Positions 34,875 through 64,000 are shown, counted from the first letter of the stretch. The stretch: 64,000 nucleotides of DNA from a virus (IMGVR_UViG_3300033073_001271:1-64000); one strand, 5' to 3'. Numbers and translations: made by a program. Notes: generated by a model from the letters alone, not told the origin.

Positions 34875-34924
34875 GCTGTTCGTCTTCAACTATAGTTTGA
34901 GAATGAGTCGCGACTCGAAACAGC
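34875..34924. other. Compact structured intergenic element (predicted three-way junction)
   Basis: GCTGTT/AACAGC closes two hairpins: TCTTCAA/TTGAGA and GAGT-CGCG-ACTC. Confidence 0.5.
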
Positions 34925-34950
34925 AAAAAGGTCGCCAGCTAATCTCTCGA

Positions 34951-35982: not shown

Positions 35983-36015
35983 TTAAGCCTCCTACGTAGG
36001 AAAAAATTTGGTATA

Positions 36016-42698: not shown

Positions 42699-42701
42699 TT
42701 T

Positions 42702-44210
42702 TTATTCCCTAGCTAATCCTGTTCCTGCATTTGCACATTCATCTACTTCTGTAATAACATAAGCAGATTTTAATTCACCATTGCACACTACGGTTAAATT
42801 TGACTTTGCTGCAATTACTCTAACATCGTGTTTAATATATTTGAATGGATGTATTGCATAATACTCTGCACCCGTTTGGTCATCTGTAACAATTCCAAAA
42901 TTATCATCGCTGTTAGGGCAGTCAAATAATTTACTTAATGGTTTGCGATTAACTAAAACAACTGGAGCAATTCCATTAACATATTTATCAGCAGGAGCTA
43001 GTTTGTATGTATATACATCGCTACTCATTTCGCAATTGTTAAAAGCAACAACTGAAAAATATCCAGAATAAGGAATTGTAATATTTGTAGGAACAATAGA
43101 GCCATCAGGCTGCGTAATATTTACAATACCTTGATTAGTTATATCTAAAATACCATTAGATTGAACTAAACTACCGCCCGCTGAATCAGAAGGTATTAAA
43201 TCTGGCAATAATTCTTGATCGGTTTGAAAATAATATACTTTTTTAGTTCCAACGTCAAAGAATTTAATTTGGTAGTGTGTTTTTATTTCGCCGACATTCC
43301 CGTATTCGTATGATTGCAATTGAAAAGGTGGAACAGTAGTTTTAGCGATGCTAGGAGCTGAGCAATTTAACTTTTTAAATTTACCAACTATGCATCCACC
43401 ACCTCCACCAGCACCCATCACTCGCCATTCGTAATTTACTTTAACTGCAATAAAATGATCACCCGGAGATAGCGATATTTGACTATTCCTATTTGTAATT
43501 AATGCAACTTCTTTAATGTCGCTTTTTACTATAGGTGATGGGCCACCTCCAAATGGATCTGGTTTAATAAGCCCACTAGCATTAACCGCTATATCAAATG
43601 TTGACCATTCTAAATTTTTACCTCTATATATAACTCCAGAACCAGTAGAAGCTGAATTAAAATTACCAGCAGGCAAAGCCGTTAACATTTTACCTTCTAT
43701 AACTTCTGGTCCACCAACCCACACTTTACGATCATCATCCCATCGTAAATCAACAGGTCCAGTTTTCCATAGAGACCTATCATTTGCAGCTTTAGTATTA
43801 AAGTATCTTCCCATGCCCGGAAGACCATTTTTAGGCATCGGCAAACCACAAATATCATATCCCCATCCAGAAAGATAGAGTGGTCCTTTATAAACCATAG
43901 CTTGAACGCTATGGCTATTTCCACTGGATAGAGGATCTTTTTTATGATTTAAATCTGTTGTTTGTCCGCCACGAACTGTAATTGCATAGTCATTTTCAGC
44001 AAAGAAAAAATAAGGATCTAAATCAAAAGATGTTGGTGATACATTAAACTGATAAAAATTTCCTACACTTTTGTGATCGTTTGGGCCTAATGCAATTTCA
44101 GTACTTGGAAAAATTTTAGTAGGATCAACCTTTTGAGATGGATCAGGTACACCATCTAATCCAATGCTCCTAGCTAATCTATCCCTATATCCTGCTCTAA
44201 ACTGAATCAT
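42702..44210 (-). CDS. Putative tail protein
   Basis: 502 aa; carries a third copy of the Cys-pair module. Confidence 0.6.
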   Translation of the reverse strand: MIQFRAGYRDRLARSIGLDGVPDPSQKVDPTKIFPSTEIALGPNDHKSVGNFYQFNVSPTSFDLDPYFFFAENDYAITVRGGQTTDLNHKKDPLSSGNSHSVQAMVYKGPLYLSGWGYDICGLPMPKNGLPGMGRYFNTKAANDRSLWKTGPVDLRWDDDRKVWVGGPEVIEGKMLTALPAGNFNSASTGSGVIYRGKNLEWSTFDIAVNASGLIKPDPFGGGPSPIVKSDIKEVALITNRNSQISLSPGDHFIAVKVNYEWRVMGAGGGGGCIVGKFKKLNCSAPSIAKTTVPPFQLQSYEYGNVGEIKTHYQIKFFDVGTKKVYYFQTDQELLPDLIPSDSAGGSLVQSNGILDITNQGIVNITQPDGSIVPTNITIPYSGYFSVVAFNNCEMSSDVYTYKLAPADKYVNGIAPVVLVNRKPLSKLFDCPNSDDNFGIVTDDQTGAEYYAIHPFKYIKHDVRVIAAKSNLTVVCNGELKSAYVITEVDECANAGTGLARE

Positions 44211-44225
44211 TATATATTTCCTTTA

Positions 44226-47200: not shown

Positions 47201-47825
47201 TTAATACAGGTTTTAAGTCCGGAACATAAAAAGAATCTAAAGGTTGGTCTAAGGGCAATTCTCCTTTAGCGGTATCTAATGTTAAGTGCGGTAAACCATC
47301 ATCTGTATAGATTGTACCATTAAATCCATTTAAAATAATCCATACGCCCTCAAGTAATGAGGCAACTGATTCCATTTCAACATTATACTTTCTTCCACCC
47401 CCAACGCTCTCCTCGTATGTATATTTCTGTATTACACCCGCAAATGAGAATGTAGCTTGTTCATCCGTAGGTTTTTGTTTAACTTTTACTACGCAAGCAG
47501 TTCCCAATTCTGGTAATTTATAATCTTTAATAAAATAAGGATCATAATTAGGAGCATTTGGATCTGTAGTTTCTGGTACACCTAATTCATTTGCATGTTC
47601 AAATATAAATTTCTTTGGGGGTATGTATAAATCAGATTCTGGATTACTATAGTCATCATAGTTGGGATCTGATGTATCATAAGCATACGGGTGATCATCT
47701 TCAACTAAAGTCACTGAACAGGTAGAATTATTAGATTTAAATCCTGTGCTAATATTAATATCTGTAACGTAACATCCTAAAAACTCGATTGGCTCTTCAA
47801 CGATAGTCATCTTGTATATATCCAT
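44226..47825 (-). CDS. Large putative tail tip/hub protein
   Basis: 1199 aa, downstream of the TMP; beta-rich N-terminus. Confidence 0.55.
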   Translation of the reverse strand: MDIYKMTIVEEPIEFLGCYVTDINISTGFKSNNSTCSVTLVEDDHPYAYDTSDPNYDDYSNPESDLYIPPKKFIFEHANELGVPETTDPNAPNYDPYFIKDYKLPELGTACVVKVKQKPTDEQATFSFAGVIQKYTYEESVGGGRKYNVEMESVASLLEGVWIILNGFNGTIYTDDGLPHLTLDTAKGELPLDQPLDSFYVPDLKPVLNYNDYTELDYPNKYDSKKFNKSRYTPSNIINLYAFKENHYDGGTFLNGYNPYTSKQPNPSKQTTGGKFGSADINSLGYPVKDLVDDIHACCKSSLFGGPIRFAGTIYKLDLSALNIAINQLGDFRIQSDNAIDIISLVNEITQYAMYDYVFLVEEDLDPYDTGVNMKYADLPEEFKADKYGMLKRARLRLKLISRREPPDKNAIKKIITDLINLPDPQKTLVSYRLGKELTSDMVTQKVLLGDKVSRHWFANQGSILPVWGQRGQGQSATYFYGRSVWDYWNPLAPVTITVNASELGSLTTASAFTPQDFIQISTNILELRCALSGRDSWNLYHKMFAIMDPISQRQRGYLSPIYPLGQVTNFTKQDISDIFNGKKTPHDLIDTSVDSAEVLASYMYGTKDAQVDYVQRIINTRFAAVSFAAEKYYGKQFLVATPSEPGKTGYDNDYNFRWVDYDKEAKTVWEISPDGAAWAGETITQYIPDISFYSNGMGRLKAVGVYPAVDFKMYGYNYPVVASDYSHLGTEYALTKVLEYNALENRNVERSVVVAPINIDEEWGTRYIDVSQLNIYDALLQDTVPLTGPISQPYKKGLTDSAGNSIASNYVKGFVKVDMKPVHLYDKYTTSFNAFGVLAQLICGDYLDGQIGADGKSLRIPKDIKVTYANMFGSENMECAIHPALCPPLYLSVPQQSTTYVWGPWWSFSGFDGEPGPNNTKKPVESKYITDVDDGRKGKAQITSNTSIKPENFGSIYAMNLSAQQLCDAELQKLHTNETGTVELADIPRWSITDKIFDVGPYINDMNISLSSEGGIVTRYNFTNWTQRAGKLAVYNYNKIIASRANNFKFLSYLRSKMAKASLPPVNRMLATSIEKQAMSTRNSTGGIFGNMLNVLARELNNSDVDVGVNIHSSPVPEAMKPIGTNILESFGSTFDQIYSPAYIFNQRYPVDHVDLYNIRLHLGHGGAGFTTPDTTGWADEDTRVNIEDRTLPPEAQG

Positions 47826-50050
47826 CCTGCATTAATTGTTAATTTGCCATTTGCCCAGTCCCACGTTTCCTGTAATTCGTTTAAATAAAAATTTGCTGTA
47901 TTTGGTGGATAATGATCAAGTACAACGGCAATTCCGCTGACTACACATAATGAATCTGGATATCTCTCTACTACATCAACAGTCGCTTCTAGTTGAACTT
48001 TTCTTTCCGATTGTTTTGTTGTTGACATATTTTGTAAAATAGGTCCAGTTTTTCTACCTAAAACCATAACTGGAACAATGTGTTGTGATTGCACACCAGA
48101 TGCCAAAGCATCAACTGTATATTTTTTATGATTAGGAATTTGAGCTGCGGAAGTTTTACGATATCTATTATCATCTTGAATATTTAAAGTAGCAGCTATA
48201 CAATTTGGAATTTTTAATTTAATATCCCTTAAACTTTTTGGTATTGGCTTATAAGTTGCACTAAATTGAATAGTTCCAGCTATTTTATTTTCTGTAATCG
48301 TAGTGGCTGCTGGCCTAATATCTAAAACCATATTAGAGTTATAAAATGGAGTATATGTATTATCTTCGAATATTTTATTTGCAAAAGTAAAAATATTAGT
48401 TCCGATTCCCCAAGGGGCAAAAGTAATTCCCGCATTACCATATGGAGATATGCCACTTGGTGCGCCCTGTGGATCATTTAAAGGCCAGCCAGAAGAGTCA
48501 ACTATGAGACCTTGTGAATAAGATGGAACGCCACTTGTATTTAAATCTTGAATAGTTGTAAAATCTGTTGGATTAAAATGCGTAGTAGCGGGCGTTGTTT
48601 GAATTCCACTATAGCATAATTGACTAAACATATCTCTGGCATTGACATATTTATTACTAATGTCTGACTTAACGCCTCTGGAATCTAGGCCATTAATAGT
48701 GCCTTCAATTTTGATAACGTCATTTCCATCTTCGCCTTTTTCATAACTGCCATTAATTTCAATGTTGGCTGGGCTTCTTGAATAAAAATATGTTGTAGTT
48801 AATGAATATGAACCAGCAACCATATCTACAGTTGAAGTTCTTACAACATTATATTCACCATAAACCCCGCTATCCCATAAATTCTGACTGATCATAGTAC
48901 CAGAATTTGGAATAGGACGAATACCACTAGCCCTTGCTGCTAATCCATATTTATTATCTAAATAAGTTTCATAAGCAGACTGGTCAACATGGAGTGGTAA
49001 ACCATTTGGCCCATTAGTTTGAACGACTCCATTAGAAACTCCAGCGGCAGTACTTGGAATAAGAGTGTCATCCGCTACAACAGCCCAAGCCGTTGGCATA
49101 AAAGCATTGCTACCAAGGTATGATCTACCATGAATATCCGTATAGATTATACCACCAAGTAAAGAATCCTTTTTCTTTCTTTGTACATAATTATACGCTT
49201 CATAAAACGCTTCAAATTTAGGATATTTGCTAATACCATCGGAAGCACTGGGCGCAGATTTTGAAGATGGTTTAATCATATTTGCATAATTATACAATCC
49301 TGATGAGGGATCATAATCATATGTTGGGCTATTATTTTGTATAGCGTTTTCATTTGCAACTGTATTATTATAAAATATTGGTATACCTTGTGCAGAAATG
49401 GTGTGTGTTATAGTATATGAATAGTATGGCATACTATAATCATTAGTCATTGTACCATTACTACGATTAAAGACAAAGTATGATAGCTTATCCTCTTCTT
49501 TTTTAATTTCAAACTGTTCTGCCGCTGCTTTTAGGCGAAACATATTTTCTAAATTTGGATCATTTGAAGGCGGAGTAATTGCTTCAAATGACATGGTGAT
49601 TTCTTGAAAGTGTATTCCGGCAGTATCTTCGGGTGCTTCGTTAATACCAACATTGTTAAGTTGTGCATACTTGTATTCTAATACTGGAATTCCAGACGGA
49701 ATAAAATGACCCGGATTTGCATCATCAGGAACTAGCCTTACAAGTTTAAGAGGGCCAGATCGTAAATCTCCAAGTCTACCAACTATAAAATCATTACTAT
49801 CTTGAGTAAGGTAATATTGACTTGTTGTACCAACTAAACTTGTATATCTATCAAAAGCTCCAGATGGAATAATTTTATTCGTTCCCATAGGTTCTGGGAC
49901 CATAGCGCCACGTATATTAAATGTATGTTTTTCACTTAATATCGTTCCATCATCCGCTCTATTGAACTCTTTTTGCATAGAGTTAGCAAAGCCATAATAT
50001 AATTTTATTGGCTCCGCCGTATCTCCGAATATCAATCCCATTAAGCTCAT
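47807..50050 (-). CDS. Putative tail protein
   Basis: 747 aa, beta-rich, in the tail module. Confidence 0.55.
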   Translation of the reverse strand: MSLMGLIFGDTAEPIKLYYGFANSMQKEFNRADDGTILSEKHTFNIRGAMVPEPMGTNKIIPSGAFDRYTSLVGTTSQYYLTQDSNDFIVGRLGDLRSGPLKLVRLVPDDANPGHFIPSGIPVLEYKYAQLNNVGINEAPEDTAGIHFQEITMSFEAITPPSNDPNLENMFRLKAAAEQFEIKKEEDKLSYFVFNRSNGTMTNDYSMPYYSYTITHTISAQGIPIFYNNTVANENAIQNNSPTYDYDPSSGLYNYANMIKPSSKSAPSASDGISKYPKFEAFYEAYNYVQRKKKDSLLGGIIYTDIHGRSYLGSNAFMPTAWAVVADDTLIPSTAAGVSNGVVQTNGPNGLPLHVDQSAYETYLDNKYGLAARASGIRPIPNSGTMISQNLWDSGVYGEYNVVRTSTVDMVAGSYSLTTTYFYSRSPANIEINGSYEKGEDGNDVIKIEGTINGLDSRGVKSDISNKYVNARDMFSQLCYSGIQTTPATTHFNPTDFTTIQDLNTSGVPSYSQGLIVDSSGWPLNDPQGAPSGISPYGNAGITFAPWGIGTNIFTFANKIFEDNTYTPFYNSNMVLDIRPAATTITENKIAGTIQFSATYKPIPKSLRDIKLKIPNCIAATLNIQDDNRYRKTSAAQIPNHKKYTVDALASGVQSQHIVPVMVLGRKTGPILQNMSTTKQSERKVQLEATVDVVERYPDSLCVVSGIAVVLDHYPPNTANFYLNELQETWDWANGKLTINAGWIYTR

Positions 50051-50054
50051 TTAA

Positions 50055-53000
50055 TTAATTCCCACGAACATAAAGTGTTGTTAAGTTAGTATTTTCCACT
50101 GGATATAGTTCACCAGAACTAAATAGTGATATTCCTGAATTGTGTAAATTTGCACTTTTGATTGTCATATCTAAATTACTTAGTACTGTAGTATTATACA
50201 CAAATAATGGCAATTGCGCTTCTGGAGTTTTAAACAATACTAAGTTCATTCCACCTTGCTGCGTAGGACCATTTTCAAATTGTGGACCTTGTAAGAATAA
50301 ATTATTGTAATTATAGTTTCCGCTAGAATTTAAAGTTGATCCACTTGGATTTGATAAGAATAGATTAATATTATTATTATATGAAGATGGCGGTGGATCA
50401 GTCGCCATTACCATATTCATTCTACCCGCGAAATCATCATATTCATATGTTTGAATATATAGTAAAGTACTGCCAGAAGAGTTTGGAACTCCTGTGTAAT
50501 AATTTTCAATATATAAAGTTACTGGTCTTACATATGGTTTTATATAATTACCAATCTGACCAGATGGTATTTCTATAACATTTCCAGCCTGATCTACCAA
50601 GGCTATGTCATTTGTTGCAACCACAAGTGGCATAGAACCATATACTTGCTGTGGCATTACAAGTGTAAGGCTATTGGTTGTAGTAAGCTGTTGAATTACA
50701 ATTGGTAATCCGCTTTTATATACATCAGGCTGTTTAATAAATAGATTGATTCCACTATTATGAGTTTCTATTTGTTTGCAGAATAAATTAATACCTGAGT
50801 TATGCACTGCCTCAGCTTCGGTATATAAATACAATCCTGTATTTACAGGAACACCGCCAAGCGCATATATAGGAATTGAATTATTTGCTCCGTCATTTGA
50901 TTTTATAAATAATGGAAGATATGTAGGATTAGGATAAGATTGATTGATAATTTTAATCGCTTTTAAATCTTCTGACCCTTCAAAAACTTCTAGAGATTCT
51001 ATAAGCTCAGCCGTTGGATTAGCCTCTATAAAAGATGCTTGAGAAGGTCTCATTCTCAAAACCGCTAGTTGAGTTAATAAATTATTATCAGTAATTAAAT
51101 GGTGATTTCTACATATAAAAATACCACTAGCAGCATCAAAAGTATAATAAGCGTATTCATTATAATCTCTTAATATAAGAGAATTGCTAAAAATATCATA
51201 TTTGCCACCAAGATTAGATTTTAAGGTTGCTGAATTTCCAGTTGTATTATCATAAGATAGATTATTGGTTAATGTATAGTATGAAGCGTTAATATCAGCA
51301 TATATTGCATTATCTAGATCAATAGTTGGTGAAATTCTTTGTAATAATGTGTATGGACCATCTAAAATATCTTTTTTATAGATATATAAATAATTTAAAG
51401 GGTCAGTTGTTTGATTAGAATCATCAGTTATAGAATATGCATCAGTTATTAAAAATCCATTATCTGCAACAAAGTAATTTCCAAAATTTTTATTTATATT
51501 TGGACTATCAATTTTTTGATTAAGATTATATCCAGATCCAATTCTGTCATAGATATATATAGATCCTCCGTTTGTATTCTTTGACATCCATCCTATAAAT
51601 AATTTTTTATTATCAAAGTCTGTATTTTCAGCATAAAATCCTAATTCATTAATTTGAACTTGCGTATCGCTTGAAACCATATTACTTGGAACGATAATTC
51701 CGCTTAAAGAAGATACTTCATTAGTGTTTAAATCTATATTGAAAGCAAGTGATAAAGCGTCAACATTTTTTACCCTATTATTCATTATAAAATCTGCACT
51801 TTTTACATATGTAGAACCAACGCAGTATAAGTTACCACTTTCTATATTAAAAGCTGCTGATACACCAAACGAATCTAAAAATCCATATTCACGGGGATAT
51901 TTATCCTGTAAAGGCATATCTATTCCCAGAGTATTATTTAAACCATATTCTTTATTCCAAGCGTAATATCTTGCGCCAAGCCAGTAATTATTCACATTTG
52001 AATTATATAAATTATTAGATAATACATTTCTAGTGCCGCTATTGTCTACAGTTAAATCATAATTATTTGTTATGAAATTATAACCTTCTCTTTTTGAACT
52101 TAAATTTGCAGCTTCGTAAGCAGCCCAAGGGTTTCCAGTTTGCGATACAGATGTTATATAGCTAATATCATAAGGAGATTTAGTTATATTATAGAAATGA
52201 ATTCTTCCATATGGTAAATAATGAGGTATGACAAATTTATTTGCTGGTATATAATCTTCACTATAAAATTTATTATATAATTCGAAAGAAAGTTCTGTTC
52301 CCGGCTCTGTAATCATTAAAATATAATTATTGTCAGAAACTTGACTAATTTGACAATCAGCACCAAATCTGTTTCCACCATACTCTTCGTAAATTACAGG
52401 ACTTGAATTATTCGATTCGCTTACTCTTTTGAATGGAAAAAAGTTATTCCACGATGTCCAACTATTTAGATAGGCTTGAGGTCTTGTTAATCCATCTTCT
52501 GTTTTATCTGATTCTATAGCTCTAGTATAAATACTACCTTCTACGCCACTCACTTCTACGGCAGTTCTAACTTTTGGAGAAAACCCATATCCATTTTTGC
52601 CAAGTGGAGAGTATAAAGTATGATTATATTTCCAACCATTAGATGTCCAGTTTACACCGCTAATAGTTTTTAGATTTTCTATATTTGCCGCAGTTTGGAA
52701 TTTAGCATCGTAATAAATATTAAAAGTGTCTGTAGTAACACCGCTGACATATTTTATGCCATTTAAACTAGTTACTCCAGTTGCACTAATAGCGGAAGAG
52801 AATTTAATGACTTCGCCATTATATAGACCGTGACCAGCAGAGGTAATAGTATTGTTGTTATATCCTGTAATTCCACCAGTTTTTTTAGTGTATATATCTA
52901 CTTTTCCGCAGCTTGGAAAATTGGCTACCTTAACGATCTTAATATTTGATTGTAAAGAAATAGTATTATTTGTAACTAAGAAAGTTCCATTTTCTGAATT

Positions 53001-54335
53001 AATTAAAGCAGTTCCATTATCAACGGTATTGTATAATTTTTTAAATGTTGGAGGAACTAAAGAAGTTGCAGAGTATGAAGTTTGTATATCTGAGGCTGTT
53101 AATACTGATGCGGGGCGCATGTAGGTGCTTAGCGTAACAAATAAATATTCTCCGGTATTTTCTCTAGTTACGATATACCATTTAAAATTATCGTCATCAG
53201 AAAATGGCTTTGGAGTATTATCAACACTATCGTCGCCCTTTTTACCGCTCGGCGGTTTAGGAGATATAAGTTTAGCTTTAGCTATATATTCATCTCTAGT
53301 TAATATTCCACCGTAAGAATATACCTGTGTTTCTGCAATATTTGTTCCCGATATATCAGCAGATTGATAACGTACTTCAATAAAAATATCACTATAATCT
53401 GGATACTCTGGTGTTACTGCAAAAGATCCAACTGGGGATGGTGCATAATTAGCTCTTGCCGGTCGTAAAAAATTAGGATTTTGTAATTGATTGTTAAACA
53501 ATTTAATATTCATCGTTGTCGTCAAATTTACACTATAATATTCGGAAAATGTATTAGAGCAACACTTTCTTACTTTTCCAAAGTTTGACGATAGCCCATA
53601 TTTAGAAGAGTCACATCCAGTACTAGGTTCTTCAGGCGAACATCCTTGTGCTGGAAGTAGGGGCGCAAAATTTGTAATAGATACAGAACCAGTACCACTA
53701 TATGATGCGCTTGGCGTACTAGATGAACATACTTGAAGGTCTATTGGATTTGATCCGCTAAATGGTGATTGGGTTGTTTTTGTAATTCCGCACTCATCAG
53801 TATAAGTAATGGTGATTGTACCTGTTGCCCCACCGGGAGATGGCGTTGCAGCAGCTTCATAAGTATACATTAATTGATTACAATTAACTTCTGATCCAAT
53901 GTCAGTGCAAGATACTGAAGCGTTAACAATGGTATCAATAGTTAAATTTGTATTTGTTAATTCGTATGTATATTTTTCTGTACTTGTCCATTCTCTGGTT
54001 GCAACTGCTGCAATGTCATCCGCTGTATCAACATCGTTAATATACCAATCGATTTCAAAATCATATATGTAGGGGGTTTTTCCACGATTGGTCCCGTAGT
54101 AATAATCATATTTATTTGATGAATAATCATTGATTCCATAGATTAACATGCCAGTTGCAGATGTAACATCTATTGTACTAGGAGACGACAGCGTGTAATC
54201 CCAATTCGTTTTATGTGGTGTGTAGGGGGCTGACTCAGCTTTTACTGTAATTGGCAATGTATTAAATATTCCAGTTGTTGAGGTTCTGGTTCCGCCCCAT
54301 ATATTTAATCCTAATCCGCCCGATCTTCTTCTCAC
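50055..54335 (-). CDS. Large putative tail/fibre protein with C-terminal short repeats
   Basis: 1426 aa, GTG start after GAGGGG; C-terminal N.G..L(F/Y) repeats. Confidence 0.6.
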   Translation of the reverse strand: MRRRSGGLGLNIWGGTRTSTTGIFNTLPITVKAESAPYTPHKTNWDYTLSSPSTIDVTSATGMLIYGINDYSSNKYDYYYGTNRGKTPYIYDFEIDWYINDVDTADDIAAVATREWTSTEKYTYELTNTNLTIDTIVNASVSCTDIGSEVNCNQLMYTYEAAATPSPGGATGTITITYTDECGITKTTQSPFSGSNPIDLQVCSSSTPSASYSGTGSVSITNFAPLLPAQGCSPEEPSTGCDSSKYGLSSNFGKVRKCCSNTFSEYYSVNLTTTMNIKLFNNQLQNPNFLRPARANYAPSPVGSFAVTPEYPDYSDIFIEVRYQSADISGTNIAETQVYSYGGILTRDEYIAKAKLISPKPPSGKKGDDSVDNTPKPFSDDDNFKWYIVTRENTGEYLFVTLSTYMRPASVLTASDIQTSYSATSLVPPTFKKLYNTVDNGTALINSENGTFLVTNNTISLQSNIKIVKVANFPSCGKVDIYTKKTGGITGYNNNTITSAGHGLYNGEVIKFSSAISATGVTSLNGIKYVSGVTTDTFNIYYDAKFQTAANIENLKTISGVNWTSNGWKYNHTLYSPLGKNGYGFSPKVRTAVEVSGVEGSIYTRAIESDKTEDGLTRPQAYLNSWTSWNNFFPFKRVSESNNSSPVIYEEYGGNRFGADCQISQVSDNNYILMITEPGTELSFELYNKFYSEDYIPANKFVIPHYLPYGRIHFYNITKSPYDISYITSVSQTGNPWAAYEAANLSSKREGYNFITNNYDLTVDNSGTRNVLSNNLYNSNVNNYWLGARYYAWNKEYGLNNTLGIDMPLQDKYPREYGFLDSFGVSAAFNIESGNLYCVGSTYVKSADFIMNNRVKNVDALSLAFNIDLNTNEVSSLSGIIVPSNMVSSDTQVQINELGFYAENTDFDNKKLFIGWMSKNTNGGSIYIYDRIGSGYNLNQKIDSPNINKNFGNYFVADNGFLITDAYSITDDSNQTTDPLNYLYIYKKDILDGPYTLLQRISPTIDLDNAIYADINASYYTLTNNLSYDNTTGNSATLKSNLGGKYDIFSNSLILRDYNEYAYYTFDAASGIFICRNHHLITDNNLLTQLAVLRMRPSQASFIEANPTAELIESLEVFEGSEDLKAIKIINQSYPNPTYLPLFIKSNDGANNSIPIYALGGVPVNTGLYLYTEAEAVHNSGINLFCKQIETHNSGINLFIKQPDVYKSGLPIVIQQLTTTNSLTLVMPQQVYGSMPLVVATNDIALVDQAGNVIEIPSGQIGNYIKPYVRPVTLYIENYYTGVPNSSGSTLLYIQTYEYDDFAGRMNMVMATDPPPSSYNNNINLFLSNPSGSTLNSSGNYNYNNLFLQGPQFENGPTQQGGMNLVLFKTPEAQLPLFVYNTTVLSNLDMTIKSANLHNSGISLFSSGELYPVENTNLTTLYVRGN

Positions 54336-54340
54336 GGCTA

Positions 54341-57300
54341 TTATCCCCCTCTTGTTTGATCCGATGCTTTCACTGCTTTTTGAACGTCTGGATGTTTAGA
54401 AACTTGATCTCTAATCCATCCTTCAATTGTTGATTTCATTGCATTGACAATGCCTTCTCCACTAACTCCCCCAACATTAACTTGGCCACCAAAAGTCACA
54501 TTGTGAGTTACAGTTACTGAACTTAATTGCCCAGCTAATGCACTCATTGTTGCTGTAAATCCATTAAACGACCCAACGAAGGCGTTTAAAGATTCGATAG
54601 ATTTAGCAAAACTAGTCATATCTGGCATCTGTGGAGCTTGTCCATTATTACCACCTTCTGCGTATGGATCTACACTTCCGCCTTCTTGATAACGGCGAAT
54701 TTTACCGCCTGAAGAGTGATGTCCCACTCTGCCGCCGCGAGCTAAATGAACAGCGCCGCCAGATGAAAAACTAGCAGATCTCCAACCCGGTTTAGCCTGT
54801 TGCATGATTTTTTCTACGGCTGTTAAAGGAGCGTTACTTTGTTGGTATTTTCTATTAGTATATCTACTAGCGTCATTCGCAGAAGGTTTTCTAGAAAATA
54901 AACTATCTTCTTCGGCTTTCTTTTTAGCAGCTAATTGCTCTCTAGTTGGATATTTTGCCAATAGTTGTTGGGCATTTTTTTCTGGAGCAGTCCAAGTTCT
55001 ACTAGATGGATTCCAAGTATAACCTTTTCCGGGAGATTTTAGCATAGAGTCAGCTTTTGCATTTGCGGCTCTCATACTATCATACTTTTTATTACTTGCT
55101 GCTGTAGCTGCTCTTGCAGCAATATTACCCTCTGCTATTTTTTTTCTATATTCATCTGGATCTGTAATATTTGCAGCATCCGCTTTATATTTTGCTCTTA
55201 TTTTTTCAGCATCAGTTGTTATTGCAATAGTTTGTCCCATATCGGCCATCTCACTTAGAGCGCCCGGAGTGCCTCTCATTGCAGATTGGCGAGTTCTTGC
55301 ATTTCTAGCTTGTGCAAAATTTTGAGGACTATTAATAGCATCTCTATTAAGAGGATTGCCACCTAAATCCATGCGGGTATTTTCAATTCTAGCAAAATCG
55401 CTCATTGGATTTGCAGCACGTCTTTGCGCCGCTCTAGCTCTAGCCCCAGCGCGTCCACCGCGAGCGTGATATTCAACTAATCCACCAGTAGCCATTCCAG
55501 TCATGCGACCTAATATTTTGGCAGCTTCTTCTTTGGATAGATCACTAATTTGACGATTTGATGTACTAGCTAATTTTTTAGCCTGTTCTTCTTTCTTTTT
55601 TCTGTTATTAGCAATTTCACTTGAGGTGGCTTTTCTTTCTTCAGTAGCAAAAATAGTACCAAAAAATCCCTTTTTGGCTATAGAATCAGAAAAATCTGGA
55701 CCTTTTTCCTTTTGTCTGTATTTTTCTGGTAAATTACGTTCTTGTAAATCATATTTATCTAATACATTTTGTCTATGAATATCTTTGGCAGTGCCAGAAC
55801 GGAATTGTAAAGATGGTCCTGCATCATACCCAAAACGATTAGCTATAGTGCCACCAATACTACCAGTCATCATATTGCGATCATAAATATTACGATTAAA
55901 CCATTTGCCAAGGCTCGCAGACCAACTATCATTAAAATCTGGAGCGTTTGCACCTTCTGGACCTGCTTCAATTTCTTTTACGGCTGCTGCGGCAGAAGCT
56001 CTTTTTAAATTTGCATCAATGTCAATTTGTCTTTGATTTTCTTTATTTACAACTGGTTTTTGACTTTTTGCAATATCAACTCCAATATTAAGCAATCCAT
56101 TAGCAATACCTCCAGTCGGCTGTTGAGGCATTTGTCCAAGGCCATAACCACCGCCCGGAAGAGTATAATACGGCCCAGATCTTGCCGGGATTGGCGCTGA
56201 AAATTCTGCTATATCGGCAGCTTTTTGAGCTTTTCTTCTATCCGCATTAGCAATAGCTTTTTGTCTTTTAGCATTAGCGGATCTACCATAGTTTATGGCT
56301 CTACCGCCTCTTCTTAAATAGCTAACCAATCCACCAGTTGCATATCCATTATTAATAGCGTCTAAGGTATCTGTACCGATGCTATCGACGGCACTTTTCC
56401 TAATAACATATTCACCCGGAGTTAACATAGCTGGAACAGTATCAGTGCCTTGAGGTGTGAAACCACCATCGGCTCTGTATATAATACCACCCTTTGCCCT
56501 TTTAGCGGCAGGCGGAGCGCCCGGATTTACTGGCACAGCAGCGCCCGTTTTCTTAAATGCTTCAGGATCTTTGATGAAGGATAAATAGTTATTTAATTTA
56601 GAAATATATTCGCCAAATAGTTCTATATTCTTATTAACAGCTTCTAAAGAAGTTTTTGTCGATGAGATGATATCATCTATTTCTTTGGTTGTTAGTTTAG
56701 AACTAGTAACTCCAGCAGCTTTTTGCATAGCTTTGGATTTATCTTGGCCTCTTTGTACATTACCTCTTAACTGATCATTGAAACCTTTAATTTTATCTGT
56801 TACTTGATTTAGAGCTTTAATTTGCCCCTCGCCATACATAATTTCAAGATCTTTTAATTCTTTTTGAGCGGCAATTTCTTCTTGATAAATATTTTGCAGT
56901 TCTGCAATTAATTTTTGTTCAGGTGTGGATGTTTCTGCCATGACCATATTTGCCATGTCCATATTACCACGTTTAGCAAAAAAGTTTGCAGTTAATTGCT
57001 TTTTAATATTTTTACCAGCATCACCAAGCTCACTTAATAATGAATCGACTTGACCTCGCATGTCACTAGATATAGCATCAAGATCGCCTCCAGCCGCCAT
57101 AACCTCTTGCAATGCTATAGCAGCATCATCTTTTGATTTGCGCTGTTCATCACTTCCAAAGGCATATCCAGTTGCAGCGCCGGTATATGCTTCTCTTTGG
57201 GCTTTAAACTTTTCTAATTCAGCAAGCGTGTCGCCCGTTCTTTCGCTTTGATTGGCCAGTGTTTTTAAAGATTGCTCCAGTCTATTTGCTGTGTTTTGTA

Positions 57301-60300
57301 TTTTTCCAGCTTCGAGCGGATCTTTTACGCCACCGGCTAATTGACCTTTGGCATCTCTTAAATTTTTACCAATGCTTTGAACGCTGGTATATGCAGTTTT
57401 ACCAATTGAGTTAAATTGTTTTGCAAATCGCTGCATATTTTTTACAGCTAATGGGACATTTTTACTGTAAGCCTTAGATATAGCTTCAACCATACGTCCA
57501 TAAGAATCAACGCCTTGATTGGTTAAATCTAATTTACGATTTTCTGATTGATTAATTTTATCAAGTATTTTTAATTGTTCTTGTTCAGCTTCTGACCACG
57601 CTTGAAGAGTTTCTTTGCTCATCTTCTTGATGGCTTCAGCGTAGTCTGTAAATTCTTTAGTAATTGAATCCCTTGTATTTTGACTTAAAATACTTGGATT
57701 TGCATTTTCTACATTGCCACCTTTTCCAGTTATTTTATCTTTAATAATTTCAGATAATCTTTTTCCAACTGCACTACCAAGAGATACGCCAAATCCTTGC
57801 TCTACAGTGTCAGCGATCAACTTATCAATTTCTTTTCCGCCGCCTGTAGCCTGAGCTTTTGCAATACTTTGCAATCCAACTTCAAGATTTGGTATAACTT
57901 TATTCAGGTCTAATAAGTTAGTAGCTAAATTTTCACCAATTGGTCCTATTGTTTTTAAAGCATCTAAAGCTGGTTGTAAATCAGCAGCATCTGGCATATC
58001 TAAATCGAATACGCTAGCGTCTGGTATAGAAGATTTTAGTCCAGCTACAGAGTCGCTAAAAGCTGCATCTAATTCGCCAGATGTCTTTGTGGCTTGTTGA
58101 ATGCTAAATTTAAAGTTTTGTAATGTAGTTTTAAGAGCTTGTTCTTCAATAAGTGTTCCAATAATAGCTTCTCTTGCAGCACGTTCTTTTAGAAGTGTTT
58201 TTTCTGTCTCCATGATTTGGAGTTTTGCTTCTAGTAATGACTTTTCAAACTCTCTAGTGCCTTGAGCTATTTCTTGATCTCTTTGCGTCGTTAAACCCTG
58301 TGCTAATTTATTATTTCCAGCTTTAGTTGCTCTTGCAATATCTGGATTATATTTAGCATTTACAATTTTAGCAATTTCTTCTTGTTGTGCTTTAATTGCC
58401 GGACCTATATCAAAGTTTTGTCCGAGTTTAGCCATGTCGCTCATTACAGTTGTTAACTTCTGTAATTTTATACCAGATAGTCTTGTAACTACATTTTCAA
58501 AATTACGAACAGCATCAGCAGCTTTATTGAATTGAGCTTTCATAGTTTCTGATCCGGTTTTTAAAATATTTGGATCAAAAGAGCTTAATTCACCTTGCGC
58601 TTTAGCAAGTTCTGTTGTCATTTTTGAGAATTGTTGATTTACATCATTTAAATCTTTATTATCAATTTTTTCAAAATATTTATTTGCATCTACTATACCT
58701 TTGCTGGCAGTTGTAAACGCCCCGCTAATTCCTTGAGCAGCAGCTTGTATTTTTGACTCATCAAAAACTTTGGCAAGTTGTGTGCCAAAGAATGTTCCAG
58801 CAAAACTACCAATTGAAGATCCTAATTGAATACCTATAGCAGTGCCAGCAGGACCGGCTAAACTACCTAATGCTCCACCTATTATAGCTCCAATACCACC
58901 TCCAGCAGCACCACCAACTGTAGCTTGAGTGCTACTTGAAGCATTATAATCAGCTTGAGCTTTTTCAGAAAGCAATAAAGTTTGTATCATGCCGTTTCTA
59001 ACTTCAACTTCGTTATTTGCAGAAGTTGCAAACTTTTCCATTGCTCTGCTTAAATTTTCACCAGCCTTTTCAGCCTGAGCATTTGTTTTTGCAATTTTAG
59101 CAGCAAATACAGCTTGTGCAAGGGCATACCCCATAATCGAACCTTCGGCTGCTTTTGATGCAAGGCTTAGCCTTTTACCAAATTTTGATGGTTCGTTATC
59201 ACCTTTATCTGATTCATTTGAAACTGTGCCTGTGTGTTGCTCCAACGCTTTTCTATCAGCTTCAACGGCAGCTCTATGCTCTCTTTCCGATTTCATAGCT
59301 GCGATTTGAGCAAAGCCCATATTTTTTAAGTTTTGTCCAATTCCATTAATAGTCGCAAAAGTACCGCTAAAAGCAGTAGCCATATCTGCGAATTCTTTGT
59401 CGAATTGAGACATCTGGGAAGCTACACCTACAACAGCAGCGCCAAGCGTTACTAATCCTGTATTTAGTGTATTACCCTTTTCTACTATCGCGTCTAATTC
59501 AGCTTTAAATTTAGCGGCAGCTTCTGTAGCCGATGCTAAAGGTGCTTTTAGACTTTGTGCGCTTTGAGCTAATGAACTAGATGAGACAAAGTTTGGATCT
59601 TTAGGAGCGTGTTTTGCAAATGCCGAGAATTGTCCAGTTGGAGTTCCTCCGTTTGCAAAATGTTGAACAAATCCGCCGTTGGCAAATTTACCAACTTTGT
59701 TCATACGATTAAGAGATGCGTAACCAATAGCTTGGGCTGATTTTTTATTGATAACGTACTCGCCGGGAGTAAGCATAGCCGGAACTGTATCAGTTCCCAC
59801 GCTTCCACCGGATGCAAATGCTAAAGTTTGTGGGGGATTTGTTTTCCACTGTTTAATAGTTTTTAACACTTTAGCTTGCTGAGATCTATCGAGATTAAAT
59901 TTAGCTACACCGAAATCACTAGATCCAGTAATTCCATTAACTAATCTAGTGGCATCTCCGGGATTATTTAAACTAAGACCTGCAATTACTGGCTTTCCAG
60001 TCTTGTCGCCTAAAGCCTTGATCATTTTTTGTCTAAAATCAGCAGACTGCTCTCTGGTAGATTTTTCAACTGCCTGTTGTTTAGCCTTTTCTCCAGCCTT
60101 AAATTCTTTTCCAAGTGCAGATTGATAAGCCTCTTCTTGATATCTTCCGCCTTTATATGACATTGGATCATATAATAATTCTCTATCAATTTTATCGCCA
60201 ACTGCTGCTGCGGCGGCTCTAGACGCTTTAGCGTCAACAAATGGCATTTTTAAATTGGGAAAGTCGCCGCTTAATAGGGTTGGCAACCCTTTAGTAAAGT

Positions 60301-62242
60301 CGAACGGTCTTTTTGGATCTGATTTAGGATCAAATTCACCTTTGCCCTCTGCAAAGGTTAAAATTTGCTCAAACATATTTCCATAAGAGCCTTCGTTAAT
60401 AGTATCTAGAAAATTACGTTCATTTTGTGCGGTTAATTTTATAGGTGAAATACCAGTAAAATCTTCTGATTTAGCAATTGCCGCTTCTAAACCTCTTGCT
60501 AATCCATTCTCAATTGCATCTCTAAACTTGCCATATGTTTTGGTAGAAACACCTTCTTTTTCAATTTTCCATTTTTTATTTTTTACTTTTTCAAAAAGAG
60601 GTTGATTATTTTTTTCAAGATATTTTTTTGTTTCATTACTTATTTGGTGTGTACCGCCACTATCCCTTACACCCGGTTCTAAAATAGCTGCGCCAATTTC
60701 ATTTTGATCTTCAATTTTTCCACCTGCGGCATATTTATTAACTCTAGCTAAATTACCAATTCCTAATTTTTTAACAGAGCTTTTCTTAATAACAAATTCA
60801 CCGGGAGTAAGCATAGCTGGTACAGTATCACTATTCCCACTTCCGGGAACTAATCCACCTGTAGCAAATCCAATTCTTCCACCTTGAGCCTTTTTACCAA
60901 TGCCAAGAGATTTAATTCCCGGCAACAGACTTTGGCCTATTTTTAAAGCTCCAAAACTTGCAATAAGTGGTAGTAATGGCTTTAATGTTGTGCCAACTTG
61001 AATGAAGGCGTTAGCCATTTGTAGTAATTTAGATACTGTATCTTGGAATGCTGACGACTGCGTTAACTCTTTAACAAATCTTAAGAATTCTTCGCGGGTT
61101 TTTTGAATTTGTACGGCGAGGGATTGCTGTGCGGTGGCAGCATCTCTTGCAAGTGAACCACTAGAGTTTTGAGCTACGCCAAGGGCTTTTTGTGCAACTG
61201 CAAATTGTTGAATAAGAGGAATAACTTTAGAAACCTGACGGAATCCACCAAGTTGTTCAACAATTAAATTAAATCTAAAATCTTTAGGATCAATAGTTGA
61301 GAGAGCTATGCTCAATCTCTTTGCTGCTTCCATTGGGCCAACGAATTGACCTTTAATGTCTTGCAACTCAATACCAAGATCTCTAAGATTATTCATTGTA
61401 TCAACACGCTGAACGCGCGTAAAGATAGTTCTGAAACCTGTTGCGATACTTTCGGCTGATTCACGGGTTGTTGATCTAACGCTTGTGAATAACGCAATAA
61501 GCTCGTTTAAACTACCACCAGCACTTTCAAATGCGGAACCTGTAGTTTTAACGGCTGTAATTAAGTCCGATGATTCAACAGCAAAGTCTTTAGAAACCTG
61601 ATTAATTGCAGATAAAGATTTCTCTAAGAATGCTACTTCACTCCCAGTTCTTTGGGCCTCACGACCAAACTGGTTTAAAATAGCAATAGCGCCTTCTGTA
61701 GTGTCTTCGATTGATTTGAATGTGGCGGCTAAGTCTGTTTGGGCTAATACTTTTAACGATCCAGTTACTTTGTCGGCTGCGAAACCAGCTTGTGTTAAGT
61801 TTCTAGCAGCAACGATTAATTCTTTAGAAGATGCCCCTAGGCCAGTTGCTATATTACCAATTTCAACTTCTAGACCTCTTAGCTGCCCTACTGTTTTTCC
61901 TGTGGCTTGAGCGATCTTTACCATTTCTCTTTCAAATTCTATAGCATCGCTAACAGCGTGCTTAATCGCTCTTGTTAAACCAACAAAAGTTCCCGTAGCA
62001 AGAGTTATAGCTGAAAAGCGTTTTGCCGCCTGAGCTATATTATTGCCAAGAGAACTTACAGATTTACTGGCTCCATCAGCAGCTTTACCAATACCTCTGA
62101 TCTGAGATTCAGCGGTAGCTAAATCCTTGATCTTAATATTGAGGTTCATACCTTGAAACTGCTGTTTTAAATTGTTTACAACTTGAGATAGGTTTTTAGT
62201 TTGTAAGTTTAATTCGGCAGTTATAGCGAACTTTGAAGCCAT
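54341..62242 (-). CDS. Tail tape measure protein (2633 aa, modular)
   Basis: N-terminal TMP core (AVSDAIEFEREMVKIAQATG...RESAESIATGFRTIFTR); Ala/Gln-rich helical regions; AxGG and DTVPAMLTPGE motifs; follows chaperone-like genes. Confidence 0.9.
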   Translation of the reverse strand: MASKFAITAELNLQTKNLSQVVNNLKQQFQGMNLNIKIKDLATAESQIRGIGKAADGASKSVSSLGNNIAQAAKRFSAITLATGTFVGLTRAIKHAVSDAIEFEREMVKIAQATGKTVGQLRGLEVEIGNIATGLGASSKELIVAARNLTQAGFAADKVTGSLKVLAQTDLAATFKSIEDTTEGAIAILNQFGREAQRTGSEVAFLEKSLSAINQVSKDFAVESSDLITAVKTTGSAFESAGGSLNELIALFTSVRSTTRESAESIATGFRTIFTRVQRVDTMNNLRDLGIELQDIKGQFVGPMEAAKRLSIALSTIDPKDFRFNLIVEQLGGFRQVSKVIPLIQQFAVAQKALGVAQNSSGSLARDAATAQQSLAVQIQKTREEFLRFVKELTQSSAFQDTVSKLLQMANAFIQVGTTLKPLLPLIASFGALKIGQSLLPGIKSLGIGKKAQGGRIGFATGGLVPGSGNSDTVPAMLTPGEFVIKKSSVKKLGIGNLARVNKYAAGGKIEDQNEIGAAILEPGVRDSGGTHQISNETKKYLEKNNQPLFEKVKNKKWKIEKEGVSTKTYGKFRDAIENGLARGLEAAIAKSEDFTGISPIKLTAQNERNFLDTINEGSYGNMFEQILTFAEGKGEFDPKSDPKRPFDFTKGLPTLLSGDFPNLKMPFVDAKASRAAAAAVGDKIDRELLYDPMSYKGGRYQEEAYQSALGKEFKAGEKAKQQAVEKSTREQSADFRQKMIKALGDKTGKPVIAGLSLNNPGDATRLVNGITGSSDFGVAKFNLDRSQQAKVLKTIKQWKTNPPQTLAFASGGSVGTDTVPAMLTPGEYVINKKSAQAIGYASLNRMNKVGKFANGGFVQHFANGGTPTGQFSAFAKHAPKDPNFVSSSSLAQSAQSLKAPLASATEAAAKFKAELDAIVEKGNTLNTGLVTLGAAVVGVASQMSQFDKEFADMATAFSGTFATINGIGQNLKNMGFAQIAAMKSEREHRAAVEADRKALEQHTGTVSNESDKGDNEPSKFGKRLSLASKAAEGSIMGYALAQAVFAAKIAKTNAQAEKAGENLSRAMEKFATSANNEVEVRNGMIQTLLLSEKAQADYNASSSTQATVGGAAGGGIGAIIGGALGSLAGPAGTAIGIQLGSSIGSFAGTFFGTQLAKVFDESKIQAAAQGISGAFTTASKGIVDANKYFEKIDNKDLNDVNQQFSKMTTELAKAQGELSSFDPNILKTGSETMKAQFNKAADAVRNFENVVTRLSGIKLQKLTTVMSDMAKLGQNFDIGPAIKAQQEEIAKIVNAKYNPDIARATKAGNNKLAQGLTTQRDQEIAQGTREFEKSLLEAKLQIMETEKTLLKERAAREAIIGTLIEEQALKTTLQNFKFSIQQATKTSGELDAAFSDSVAGLKSSIPDASVFDLDMPDAADLQPALDALKTIGPIGENLATNLLDLNKVIPNLEVGLQSIAKAQATGGGKEIDKLIADTVEQGFGVSLGSAVGKRLSEIIKDKITGKGGNVENANPSILSQNTRDSITKEFTDYAEAIKKMSKETLQAWSEAEQEQLKILDKINQSENRKLDLTNQGVDSYGRMVEAISKAYSKNVPLAVKNMQRFAKQFNSIGKTAYTSVQSIGKNLRDAKGQLAGGVKDPLEAGKIQNTANRLEQSLKTLANQSERTGDTLAELEKFKAQREAYTGAATGYAFGSDEQRKSKDDAAIALQEVMAAGGDLDAISSDMRGQVDSLLSELGDAGKNIKKQLTANFFAKRGNMDMANMVMAETSTPEQKLIAELQNIYQEEIAAQKELKDLEIMYGEGQIKALNQVTDKIKGFNDQLRGNVQRGQDKSKAMQKAAGVTSSKLTTKEIDDIISSTKTSLEAVNKNIELFGEYISKLNNYLSFIKDPEAFKKTGAAVPVNPGAPPAAKRAKGGIIYRADGGFTPQGTDTVPAMLTPGEYVIRKSAVDSIGTDTLDAINNGYATGGLVSYLRRGGRAINYGRSANAKRQKAIANADRRKAQKAADIAEFSAPIPARSGPYYTLPGGGYGLGQMPQQPTGGIANGLLNIGVDIAKSQKPVVNKENQRQIDIDANLKRASAAAAVKEIEAGPEGANAPDFNDSWSASLGKWFNRNIYDRNMMTGSIGGTIANRFGYDAGPSLQFRSGTAKDIHRQNVLDKYDLQERNLPEKYRQKEKGPDFSDSIAKKGFFGTIFATEERKATSSEIANNRKKKEEQAKKLASTSNRQISDLSKEEAAKILGRMTGMATGGLVEYHARGGRAGARARAAQRRAANPMSDFARIENTRMDLGGNPLNRDAINSPQNFAQARNARTRQSAMRGTPGALSEMADMGQTIAITTDAEKIRAKYKADAANITDPDEYRKKIAEGNIAARAATAASNKKYDSMRAANAKADSMLKSPGKGYTWNPSSRTWTAPEKNAQQLLAKYPTREQLAAKKKAEEDSLFSRKPSANDASRYTNRKYQQSNAPLTAVEKIMQQAKPGWRSASFSSGGAVHLARGGRVGHHSSGGKIRRYQEGGSVDPYAEGGNNGQAPQMPDMTSFAKSIESLNAFVGSFNGFTATMSALAGQLSSVTVTHNVTFGGQVNVGGVSGEGIVNAMKSTIEGWIRDQVSKHPDVQKAVKASDQTRGG
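56411..60829 (-). repeat. Three dispersed copies encoding DTVPAMLTPGE(F/Y)VI
   Basis: Copies at 60797-60829, 59759-59791 and 56411-56443; DNA differences within the 11 codons are synonymous. Confidence 0.95.
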
Positions 62243-62345: not shown

Positions 62346-63203
62346 TTATTCAGATGAGTCAGCTTTCTTTTTCTTTGATTTTTTAGCTTCTTCTGGGGGT
62401 TTATCGATACTATCTATCGGATTTCCATCGTCATCCAGAAATGGAAGTTTATCAACGTCTAATCGTTGTCCATCACGATTAACTTTATAACTATTTCCAT
62501 CTGAGTCATATGCAATAAAATTACCCTGTTCATCTATTAGTCTTTCAACGTCATCAGTATCAATAGAAATTAAATGCCCTTCTTTATTTACAAAGCGACC
62601 CTGACTATCTGTAAAATTATATTTAGTAAGGAATTGGTTCTCTGGCAAATTCTTTTCATAGTTAGAATCTAGACTATATAAGATATTAGCAAGTTCACTT
62701 GCAGCTTTAACAGCCCAAGGCTCAGCGCCGCGCTCGTTATAGTCTTCTAAATCCTTGAATACTGGCTTTTTAGTTTGTGGATCTAGTGTGCAAACAGAAA
62801 CTAGATAATCAAATCTTTCATTATCTGCAACTCCTTCGGCTGTAGTGTTGTCATACGAAGTTCTTTCTGCAATAAGATCTCTAAATTCAATACGAAGTCT
62901 TTTAAGTTCAAGAGCAATAGCTTTAGCTTTCTTAAGTGGAATACCACCCTTTTCAAGAACTAATTCTCTATCGCCAATTTTCTTAACAAAATCTTTGTAT
63001 TGATTTTCCTTTTCTTCGCTCCAAATTCCTTGCTCAGTTAAAAAATCATTTAACTTTGCTCGAATGATAGCCTTATCTTCTAGGGCTTTTCTCCAAGCCT
63101 TATTATAAACAACCTGAGAATTATTTATATCCTTGCGGCTGGGCGCTTTGACAAGCACTGTTACATCGCCTTCAACCACAGTCTTCATTCCTTCTTCAGC
63201 CAT
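62346..63203 (-). CDS. Putative tail assembly chaperone
   Basis: Helical, charged 285-aa protein immediately upstream of the TMP; AGGAGAG RBS. Confidence 0.55.
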   Translation of the reverse strand: MAEEGMKTVVEGDVTVLVKAPSRKDINNSQVVYNKAWRKALEDKAIIRAKLNDFLTEQGIWSEEKENQYKDFVKKIGDRELVLEKGGIPLKKAKAIALELKRLRIEFRDLIAERTSYDNTTAEGVADNERFDYLVSVCTLDPQTKKPVFKDLEDYNERGAEPWAVKAASELANILYSLDSNYEKNLPENQFLTKYNFTDSQGRFVNKEGHLISIDTDDVERLIDEQGNFIAYDSDGNSYKVNRDGQRLDVDKLPFLDDDGNPIDSIDKPPEEAKKSKKKKADSSE

Positions 63204-63204
63204 T

Positions 63205-63555
63205 TTACTCTCCTCTATCTTTGAACGGTAAATTAATAGTATACTTTTTCCATGTAATTTCGTAATTTAAAAACTCATTTTCCAAATTCCTTATTTGTGT
63301 ATTACCACGATCAAGGATTTCAGACCGCATTTCTTCAAAAAATTCCCTAAGTTTTTGCTGTTCCTGTGTAGGATTATCAATATCCCAAAGAAAGCCAAAA
63401 TACTTTTCCATGCTAGAAAGAGATCCAATCATTGTAGTTTGAATCTTTTTTTTAGCAGCGCCTAGCAATCTATCTTTTGATAATTCCTTTTGGCGTTCTT
63501 CTCTAATTTGTTTAAACTCAAAAGATTTTTTTAAATACTTTGAGAATTCATCCAT
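63205..63555 (-). CDS. Hypothetical protein (tail assembly region)
   Basis: 116-aa ORF with GAGAGGG RBS. Confidence 0.65.
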   Translation of the reverse strand: MDEFSKYLKKSFEFKQIREERQKELSKDRLLGAAKKKIQTTMIGSLSSMEKYFGFLWDIDNPTQEQQKLREFFEEMRSEILDRGNTQIRNLENEFLNYEITWKKYTINLPFKDRGE

Positions 63556-63556
63556 A

Positions 63557-64000
63557 TTATTGCCCTCTCGCTTTATTCATTACAGATTGATTATTTTGCA
63601 TCTGTATATCAATTTGCACATCTGCAAATTCAAGATCCGATGAAATAATATCTCCTTTATTTAATAGCTGTTGCATTCTATTCTTTTTAATTTGCTGTAC
63701 ATGTGGCGAATTATAAGATTCAATACGAGCAGCTTCCTGATCCGACCCAGCCATTACAAATACTTCACCAGCATTTGCAATTTTTTCATTATTAGTTAAA
63801 TTATTAATTTCTTGCTCTTTTTTATATTTTTCATTTTTACGTTTTTGGTCTATAAACCAACCATCTAAACAATCGTCATCCTCTATAACTAAATCAATAG
63901 GACTTTCTGGATTTTCATATACGCTATCATACATATTAGAATATGAACATAAAACTATTTGATCTCTAGTTAGCATTGAAGACGGTTTATTAAATAGATT
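63557..64000 (-). CDS. Hypothetical protein, 5'-truncated by window edge
   Basis: Frame remains open from 63976 to base 64000 (NLFNKPSS-MLTRD...). Confidence 0.65.
   Translation of the reverse strand, partial: NLFNKPSSMLTRDQIVLCSYSNMYDSVYENPESPIDLVIEDDDCLDGWFIDQKRKNEKYKKEQEINNLTNNEKIANAGEVFVMAGSDQEAARIESYNSPHVQQIKKNRMQQLLNKGDIISSDLEFADVQIDIQMQNNQSVMNKARGQ

Follow-up and report, generated by a model that had tools for sequence, protein, structure and literature searches.

Conserved Joints Separate a Fixed Backbone From Exchangeable Inserts

Comparison with its relatives shows that P0001, the tape measure protein (TMP) of a marine tailed phage of roughly 150 kb that is uncultured and known only from a metagenomic contig, is made of a fixed backbone and exchangeable inserts, with a conserved module of the lambda type at the junctions. 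The protein is encoded on the minus strand of a 64-kb window (IMGVR_UViG_3300033073_001271:1-64000, the whole stretch of DNA analysed), which belongs to an IMG/VR virus record of 73.8 kb with a CheckV completeness of 49%. Its gene (54341..62242) is one open reading frame (ORF) of 2,633 codons, encoding 2,633 amino acids (aa) without an internal stop. P0001 is a TMP of the PF10145 type: PF10145 (PhageMin_Tail) matches aa 133-320 (nucleotides, nt, 61283-61846) at 69.5 bits against a gathering cut-off of 33.2, and several PHROG tape-measure families are matched as well, with E-values down to 5e-25. The module at the junctions, which we call the joint, spans about 60 aa, in which one or two AxGG turns are followed by the strand DTVPAMLTPGEFV, which is invariant, by a pair of short helices with N as their last residue, and by a further AxGG; its full plan, [FY]AxGG - DTVPAMLTPGE[FY]VI - short helices - [FY]AxGG, occurs three times in P0001. 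Nearly all relatives retain the backbone, which is made up of the PF10145 core at the N-terminus (about 470 aa), a glycine-zipper segment rich in helices (about 1,040 aa), and the conserved last ~100 aa. The inserts, which vary, are segment 1, between joints 1 and 2, and the whole stretch from joint 3 to the C-terminal end.

A search over 5.8 billion proteins returned 1,439 homologues of P0001, and 489 related loci were present in IMG/VR. The best 120 proteins have between two and six copies of the core DTVPAMLTPGEFVIxKSAVxxIGxxxLxxMN, each flanked on either side by AxGG, and the D, P, G, E, V, and N residues of the core are invariant. The canonical plan of the family begins with an N-terminal core (~472 aa), a joint, a variable segment 1 (200-750 aa, sometimes two segments) and a second joint, continues with a helix-rich segment (~1,000-1,400 aa, with the glycine zipper) and a further joint, and ends with one to three highly variable segments split by joints (about 60 sequence clusters), a last joint and a conserved end of ~130 aa. 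The subgroup of P0001 has lost the core of that last joint. The N-terminal core has an invariant length (469-487 aa) at 64-97% identity, and the backbone segments hold their length, while inserts range from 150 to 1,600 aa between close relatives.

Joints coincide, to within a few residues in the alignments, with the blocks that are replaced or inserted among relatives. P0001 and its closest relative, P0004, have cores that are 97% identical; identity runs at 85-100% to aa 520, is only 10-45% across segment 1 (which as a whole aligns at 39% identity with 60% coverage), recovers to 78-92% at aa 801, and falls again shortly after joint 3. At the residue level, the break on the left comes after the C-flank of joint 1 (KYAAGGKIE...IGAAIL) and that on the right lies at the N-flank AxGG of joint 2. 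The relatives P0006-P0012 are 86-91% identical to P0001 in the core and 68-77% identical in the long segment, and their segment 1 gives no BLASTP match at all. The clearest insertion separates P0002 from P0003, whose identity is 96-100% up to residue 700 and 99% from there on, and which differ by a block of ~300 aa. This block is a PF03496 ADP-ribosyltransferase (ART) domain with STS and ExE motifs, set between a half joint (LADGGLVQKFAEGGKPTL), which follows segment 1, and joint 2. In P0005, the same PF03496 cassette is located between two complete joints. The two ART-carrying proteins (one PF03496 domain each) are encoded at L006:10001-19360 and L092:2367-11954, respectively; the position of the arginine in their R-S-E triad is uncertain.

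In comparisons among 70 family members, 79% of the internal ends of high-scoring segment pairs of 60% identity or more fell within 45 aa of a joint core, compared with 16% expected from length; the proportion was 41% (against 16%) once duplicates were collapsed, and the statistic is inflated by shared ancestry, which makes the pairs non-independent, and by the conserved core, which always ends at joint 1. A preliminary description of the window had predicted conserved motifs with swappable segments between them, as opposed to collinear relatives without swapping. The relatives are non-collinear, homology breaks on the AxGG flanks, and the ART cassette is present or absent at a joint, in agreement with that prediction.

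Layout of Joints and Segments in P0001

The five motif clusters listed in the preliminary description were all recovered at their coordinates (aa 452-509, 808-867, 1916-1981, 2249-2264, and 2491-2532), although clusters 1-3 are complete joints (profile E-values of 1e-26 to 9e-30) whereas clusters 4 and 5 are, on alignment, AxGG-only remnants or half joints. The motif [FYM][AS]xGG occurs 10 times in P0001, against a mean of 0.34 and a maximum of 4 in 2,000 shuffles. All features below are on the minus strand. Segment 0, the N-terminal TMP core (aa 1-444, 60911..62242), holds PF10145 and ends in a moderately hydrophobic stretch ahead of joint 1. Joint 1 (AQGG..FATGG..DTVPAMLTPGEFVI..YAAGG, aa 452-509, 60716..60889, E 1e-26) forms the left edge of the block swapped relative to P0004, and joint 2 (FASGG..DTVPAMLTPGEYVI..FANGG..FANGG, aa 808-867, 59642..59821, E 9e-30) forms its right edge. 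Between them lies the variable segment 1 (aa 513-804, 59831..60706), which carries the conserved signature GAAIL / YGNxFE / RPFDF / VDAKAS; across ten relatives, the E of YGNxFE, the D of RPFDF and the D-A-K of VDAKAS are invariant and in that order. This segment had been described as globular, which was not demonstrable, as the AlphaFold2 model of joint 1, segment 1, and joint 2 (426 aa, 10 sequences) was unusable at a predicted local distance difference test score (pLDDT) of 42.

For the other segments, the glycine zipper and the basic character of the stretches after joint 3 were borne out. Segment 2, the long helix-rich backbone (aa 871-1909, 56516..59632), is homologous in almost all relatives (sequence cluster 1, 111 members) and contains the glycine zipper (aa 1107-1138, 58829..58924), seen as hydrophobic Gly-zipper windows, with weak Gly-zipper Pfam matches in relatives. 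Joint 3 (AKGG..ADGG..DTVPAMLTPGEYVI..YATGG..RRGG, aa 1916-1981, 56300..56497, E 2e-28) is followed by a collapse of identity to relatives about 25 aa further on. Two variable basic inserts come next, segment 3a (aa 1986-2240, 55523..56287, net charge +11) and segment 3b (aa 2267-2488, 54779..55444, net charge +18). They are separated by cluster 4, the half joint MATGGLVEYHARGG (aa 2249-2264, 55451..55498), which is a joint C-flank alone, without the DTVPAMLTPGE core; its ILGRMTGMATGGLVEYHARGGRA aligns with the C-flank of joint 3 (TLDAINNGYATGGLVSYLRRGGRA). In cluster 5 (aa 2491-2532, 54647..54772), AxGG repeats follow one another, and P0003 has an insertion of 114 aa at this site.

The chain closes with a conserved C-terminal end (aa 2533-2633, 54344..54646); the last 110 aa are kept in 105 of the 111 distinct C-termini of the family. 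This is presumed to be a hub- or tip-binding end because the TMP C-termini of T5, lambda, and Douge sit in the hub. A resemblance of the last ~60 aa to the C-terminus of lambda gpH was considered and rejected, since the family profile shows no significant similarity. The joint itself is not predicted to fold stably in isolation. AlphaFold2 modeled joint 3 alone (83 aa, 142-sequence alignment) with two short helices only and a pLDDT of 62, a low monomer score that fits a linker or a partner-dependent element.

The Joint in Lambda and Other Phages

A single copy of such a motif is the familiar state, as had been supposed: there is one in lambda gpH, and the joint was found in 224 GenBank phage records, mostly in annotated TMPs, at one or two places per record. 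The carriers are mainly phages of Gordonia, Mycobacterium, Vibrio, Pseudomonas, and Burkholderia. Searched against gpH alone, the family joint profile matched residues 730-788 (FHFATGG..PAGIVHRGEFVF..IGVGNLYRLM..YATGG) with an E-value of 4.8e-10; searched against all PDB sequences, it matched gpH residues 727-800 (E 1.4e-5) together with two joints, at 951-1028 and 1411-1461, in gp16, the TMP of mycobacteriophage Douge. These profile matches show the joint of P0001 to be homologous to the single copy in gpH (727-800). The joint region is seen in neither structure: gpH residues ~690-817 are unseen in that of lambda, and only residues 1658-1699 are modeled in that of Douge.

Lambda gpH, which is matured to gpH* and gpHC, resembles P0001 in that its one joint follows a glycine-rich hydrophobic stretch. 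However, gpH has 853 aa with one joint and no insert, compared with 2,633 aa, three joints, and two half joints in P0001, and the N-terminal domain is PF06791 and PF09718 in lambda but PF10145 in P0001. Annotated actinobacteriophage TMPs with embedded lytic domains (gp18 of Gordonia phage Easley, gp16 of Douge) carry two or three copies of the P0001-type joint; their backbones are different. Easley gp18 has three joints, the second of which marks the end of an SLT transglycosylase domain (aa 1540-1630). In a cyanomyophage, the protein at the gp29 position bears a cell-wall hydrolase domain (Hydrolase_2) after its single joint. On a wider scale, 29,251 proteins among 1.84 billion representatives carry the joint, some of them in about ten or eleven copies within 7,800 residues, and TMP length rises with the number of joints (r = 0.80). 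Two such relatives, P0121 and P0124, have 7,794-7,872 residues and about ten or eleven joints; their tails would exceed 1 micrometre if the whole chain measured.

The papers that could be searched gave no description of repeated joints in TMPs, of a polyprotein TMP, or of toxin-bearing TMPs. A published parallel is that of the polyvalent proteins, giant virion-associated proteins with shuffled domains, including ADP-ribosyltransferases, that are presumed to reach the host along with its incoming phage DNA (Iyer et al., 2017; PMC5512222). That paper mentions neither TMPs nor the joint, and P0001 differs from its proteins in having no recognised conflict domain. The joint is established as a discrete and very widespread module, of which one protein can have as many as about eleven copies, placed where exchangeable segments meet their neighbours, and it provides a rule for locating possible processing sites in TMPs, for telling measuring from passenger parts, and for recognizing the insertion points of foreign domains.

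Possible Processing at the Joints and Fate of the Inserts

Where and how lambda gpH is cut has been a standing question since 1983. The interpretation that we prefer, at a probability of roughly 0.55, is that P0001 is a cassette TMP whose joints act as maturation or hinge sites of the lambda and T5 type. The joint would let a foreign segment be spliced into the TMP without spoiling assembly. Cutting or unfolding at the AxGG turns would take place once the tail is assembled or during ejection; a conduit across the envelope would then be built from the helical glycine-zipper parts, and the host envelope or cytoplasm would receive the inserts, which in P0001 would be orphan basic or enzyme-like segments, and in relatives an ADP-ribosyltransferase. 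Published work ascribes membrane permeabilisation and effector translocation to glycine zippers that are shared with TMPs (PMC10240207). Delivery into the host together with the DNA would follow the TMP ejection described for lambda, T5, and HK97. Such an architecture predicts that long phage tails bring diverse, mostly uncharacterised proteins into the host.

Processing of P0001 is proposed by analogy. The joint of lambda adjoins the region in which gpH is cut after tail assembly, and the cut, placed by mass, lies ~10-40 residues ahead of the first AxGG of the joint. In T5, the TMP pb2 is cut during tail assembly after R1127, releasing an enzymatic C-terminal piece with a proposed periplasmic action (PMC10038345). 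The sequence around R1127 is FVPR|AEGG, so that an AxGG-type motif (AEGG) stands at the cut, just after a hydrophobic stretch from which the cut parts the muralytic end. Unlike P0001, pb2 has one cut and one cargo, and it gives no significant match to the joint profile; the link to T5 therefore consists of position and the AxGG motif only. Among the relatives of P0001, 3 of 89 loci have a single in-frame stop that interrupts the TMP frame, and two of these three stops (L048:3303-3305 and L051:11660-11662) take the place of the second G in the AxGG that comes just behind joint 1 (NKYKTG*RV and NFKAG*V); in L051, the TAG is directly followed by GTG. These two split genes, too few to be more than a lead, could reflect gene fission, readthrough, or sequencing error. 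From lambda, T5, and the two split genes, we infer that the joints of P0001 may be cleaved.

Several points weigh against this interpretation. The cut site of gpH is known only roughly, at about residue 690-730, and the protease is unknown. Cutting has been seen in the TMPs of lambda and T5, and no multi-joint TMP has been observed to be cut. The split genes could be sequencing errors. The C-terminus of T5 pb2 was tried as a joint and rejected, as hhalign pairs RAEGG..GTEVVTPMV with RADGG..GTDTVPAML at an E-value of 0.81 only. The breakpoint statistic is inflated, for the reasons given above. The inserts of P0001 have no match in Pfam, PHROG, the protein atlas, or among stand-alone proteins; in the protein atlas, the best scores for segments 1, 3a, and 3b were at chance level (0.79-0.80). 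A search for segment 1 among proteins of 161-513 aa gave no stand-alone homologue, so it may be an integral, fast-evolving TMP domain and not cargo. Pfam searches of 13 large relatives and of four with 7-8 joints returned just PF10145 and one weak DUF.

The preliminary description had gone further, suggesting a "polyvalent" TMP that injects several effector domains. That P0001 contains several effector domains is unproven: the several enzymatic or conflict domains of polyvalent proteins were not found, P0001 having PF10145 only, and no lytic domain (SLT, M23, lysozyme, Hydrolase_2) was matched by Pfam at E-values up to 0.1, unlike in TMPs with an embedded peptidoglycan hydrolase (T5 pb2, SPbeta YomI, Easley gp18). 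A broader and more tentative proposal, which we regard as possible but less likely than not, is that tailed phages in general use the joint with its AxGG flanks as a "polyprotein code". Every copy would then be a maturation cleavage site, self-catalysed or served by some tail or host protease, and giant TMPs would be resolved into a channel backbone and up to ten released cargo proteins. If so, the tail lumen would be a multi-effector delivery device, and the cut that yields gpH* would be the minimal case with one joint.

Alternative Explanations

The main rival is that the 2,633-aa chain stays intact and sets tail length as a plain ruler, with the joints holding three or six TMP chains in register or binding tail assembly chaperones or the tube wall, and with the inserts serving as spacers that alter tail length through their own length. 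A ruler of this kind accords with the correlation between protein length and joint number, with the modest pLDDT of the isolated joint (as if it needed a partner to fold), with the lack of a recognisable enzyme in most inserts, with the confinement of segment 1 to TMPs, and with the demonstration of cutting for lambda and T5 alone. It is harder to reconcile with the ART, SLT, and Hydrolase_2 domains that lie directly beside joints in relatives and annotated phages, and with backbones of constant length whose inserts vary from 150 to 1,600 aa among close relatives. In addition, the 7,800-aa relatives would need tails of ~1.2 micrometres if every residue counted. We consider an uncut ruler with joints as register or docking nodes a serious but less probable explanation than joints that act as maturation or hinge sites.

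The joints might instead be retained as DNA, as repeats kept for homologous exchange of cassettes while the peptide has no role of its own. The preliminary description had raised both this use as recombination anchors and selection on the peptide. The positions of the breakpoints between relatives, at joints, would be expected of DNA anchors. However, DTVPAMLTPGE is encoded in P0001 by three 33-nt copies that differ at 4-7 positions, every difference being synonymous, as had been noted, and over 96 nt the three joint copies share just 58-67 nt. At sites with identical residues, compared at three divergence levels, codon identity in the joint core and the N-terminal core was 0.73 vs. 0.71, 0.57 vs. 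0.54, and 0.43 vs. 0.42, respectively. Synonymous sites of the joint are thus no more conserved than those of the core, which contradicts the DNA-anchor explanation and means that the joint is conserved for peptide function and not as DNA. The peptide is, moreover, kept from lambda to actinophages and cyanomyophages. The anchor explanation is accordingly very unlikely, and the use of joints for crossover is best seen as a consequence of peptide conservation: crossovers collect there because crossovers at joints yield working proteins. An artefactual ORF, in which a chimeric assembly or a run-on frame fused several genes, is suggested by the unusual length alone, no evidence for it having been found, and can be dismissed given the uninterrupted frame and the same architecture and gene order in independent ENA, JGI, Logan, and IMG/VR assemblies.

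Genomic Setting

The TMP gene lies among minus-strand genes whose order around it is kept in relatives despite the absence of family matches. Two conserved genes upstream (62346..63555, minus strand), encoding 285 and 116 aa, occupy the position of tail assembly chaperones and are inferred from that position alone to be candidates for this role; neither protein matches a Pfam or PHROG family. Downstream, a conserved tail gene (50055..54335, minus strand) encodes 1,426 aa, is syntenic in relatives, and likewise has no Pfam or PHROG match. In all, the ten tail-region neighbours of the TMP gene (36612-54335 and 62346-63976, minus strand), among them giants of 1,426, 1,199, and 1,099 aa, returned zero Pfam or PHROG matches. 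The structural module of this lineage is essentially unannotated. Pfam recognised no tail sheath gene in the 10 kb of the record that lie outside the window, and no close relative of P0001 was present in the GenBank phage collection, where the N-terminal core alone finds matches, at ~24% identity, in SPbeta-like and Enterocloster phages.

The minus-strand half of the window contains very large structural genes, and the plus-strand half is a replication module with ribonucleotide reductase, a DnaB-type helicase, primase, exonuclease, DNA polymerase (in two ORFs), a UvsX-like recombinase, and glycosyltransferases. The coding strand flips from plus to minus at about 34800-36000, where the sign of the GC skew also changes, such that the replication and structural modules converge. 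The two polymerase ORFs (22305-26444, plus strand) correspond to different parts of phrog_405, ORF 22305-23915 to positions 246-609 and ORF 24783-26444 to positions 624-1056, and the gap of about 870 nt between them contains an ORF of 235 aa (24119-24826). Either an insertion (intron, intein, or homing endonuclease) or a polymerase that is split by nature may account for the arrangement. Two neighbouring glycosyltransferase genes (phrog_2170) follow in the same module (26794-29531, plus strand). Beyond the window, a 710-aa protein (L096:5979-8111; G000 69378-71510) combines collagen triple-helix repeats with a weak match to a phage tail collar domain and is probably a fibre.

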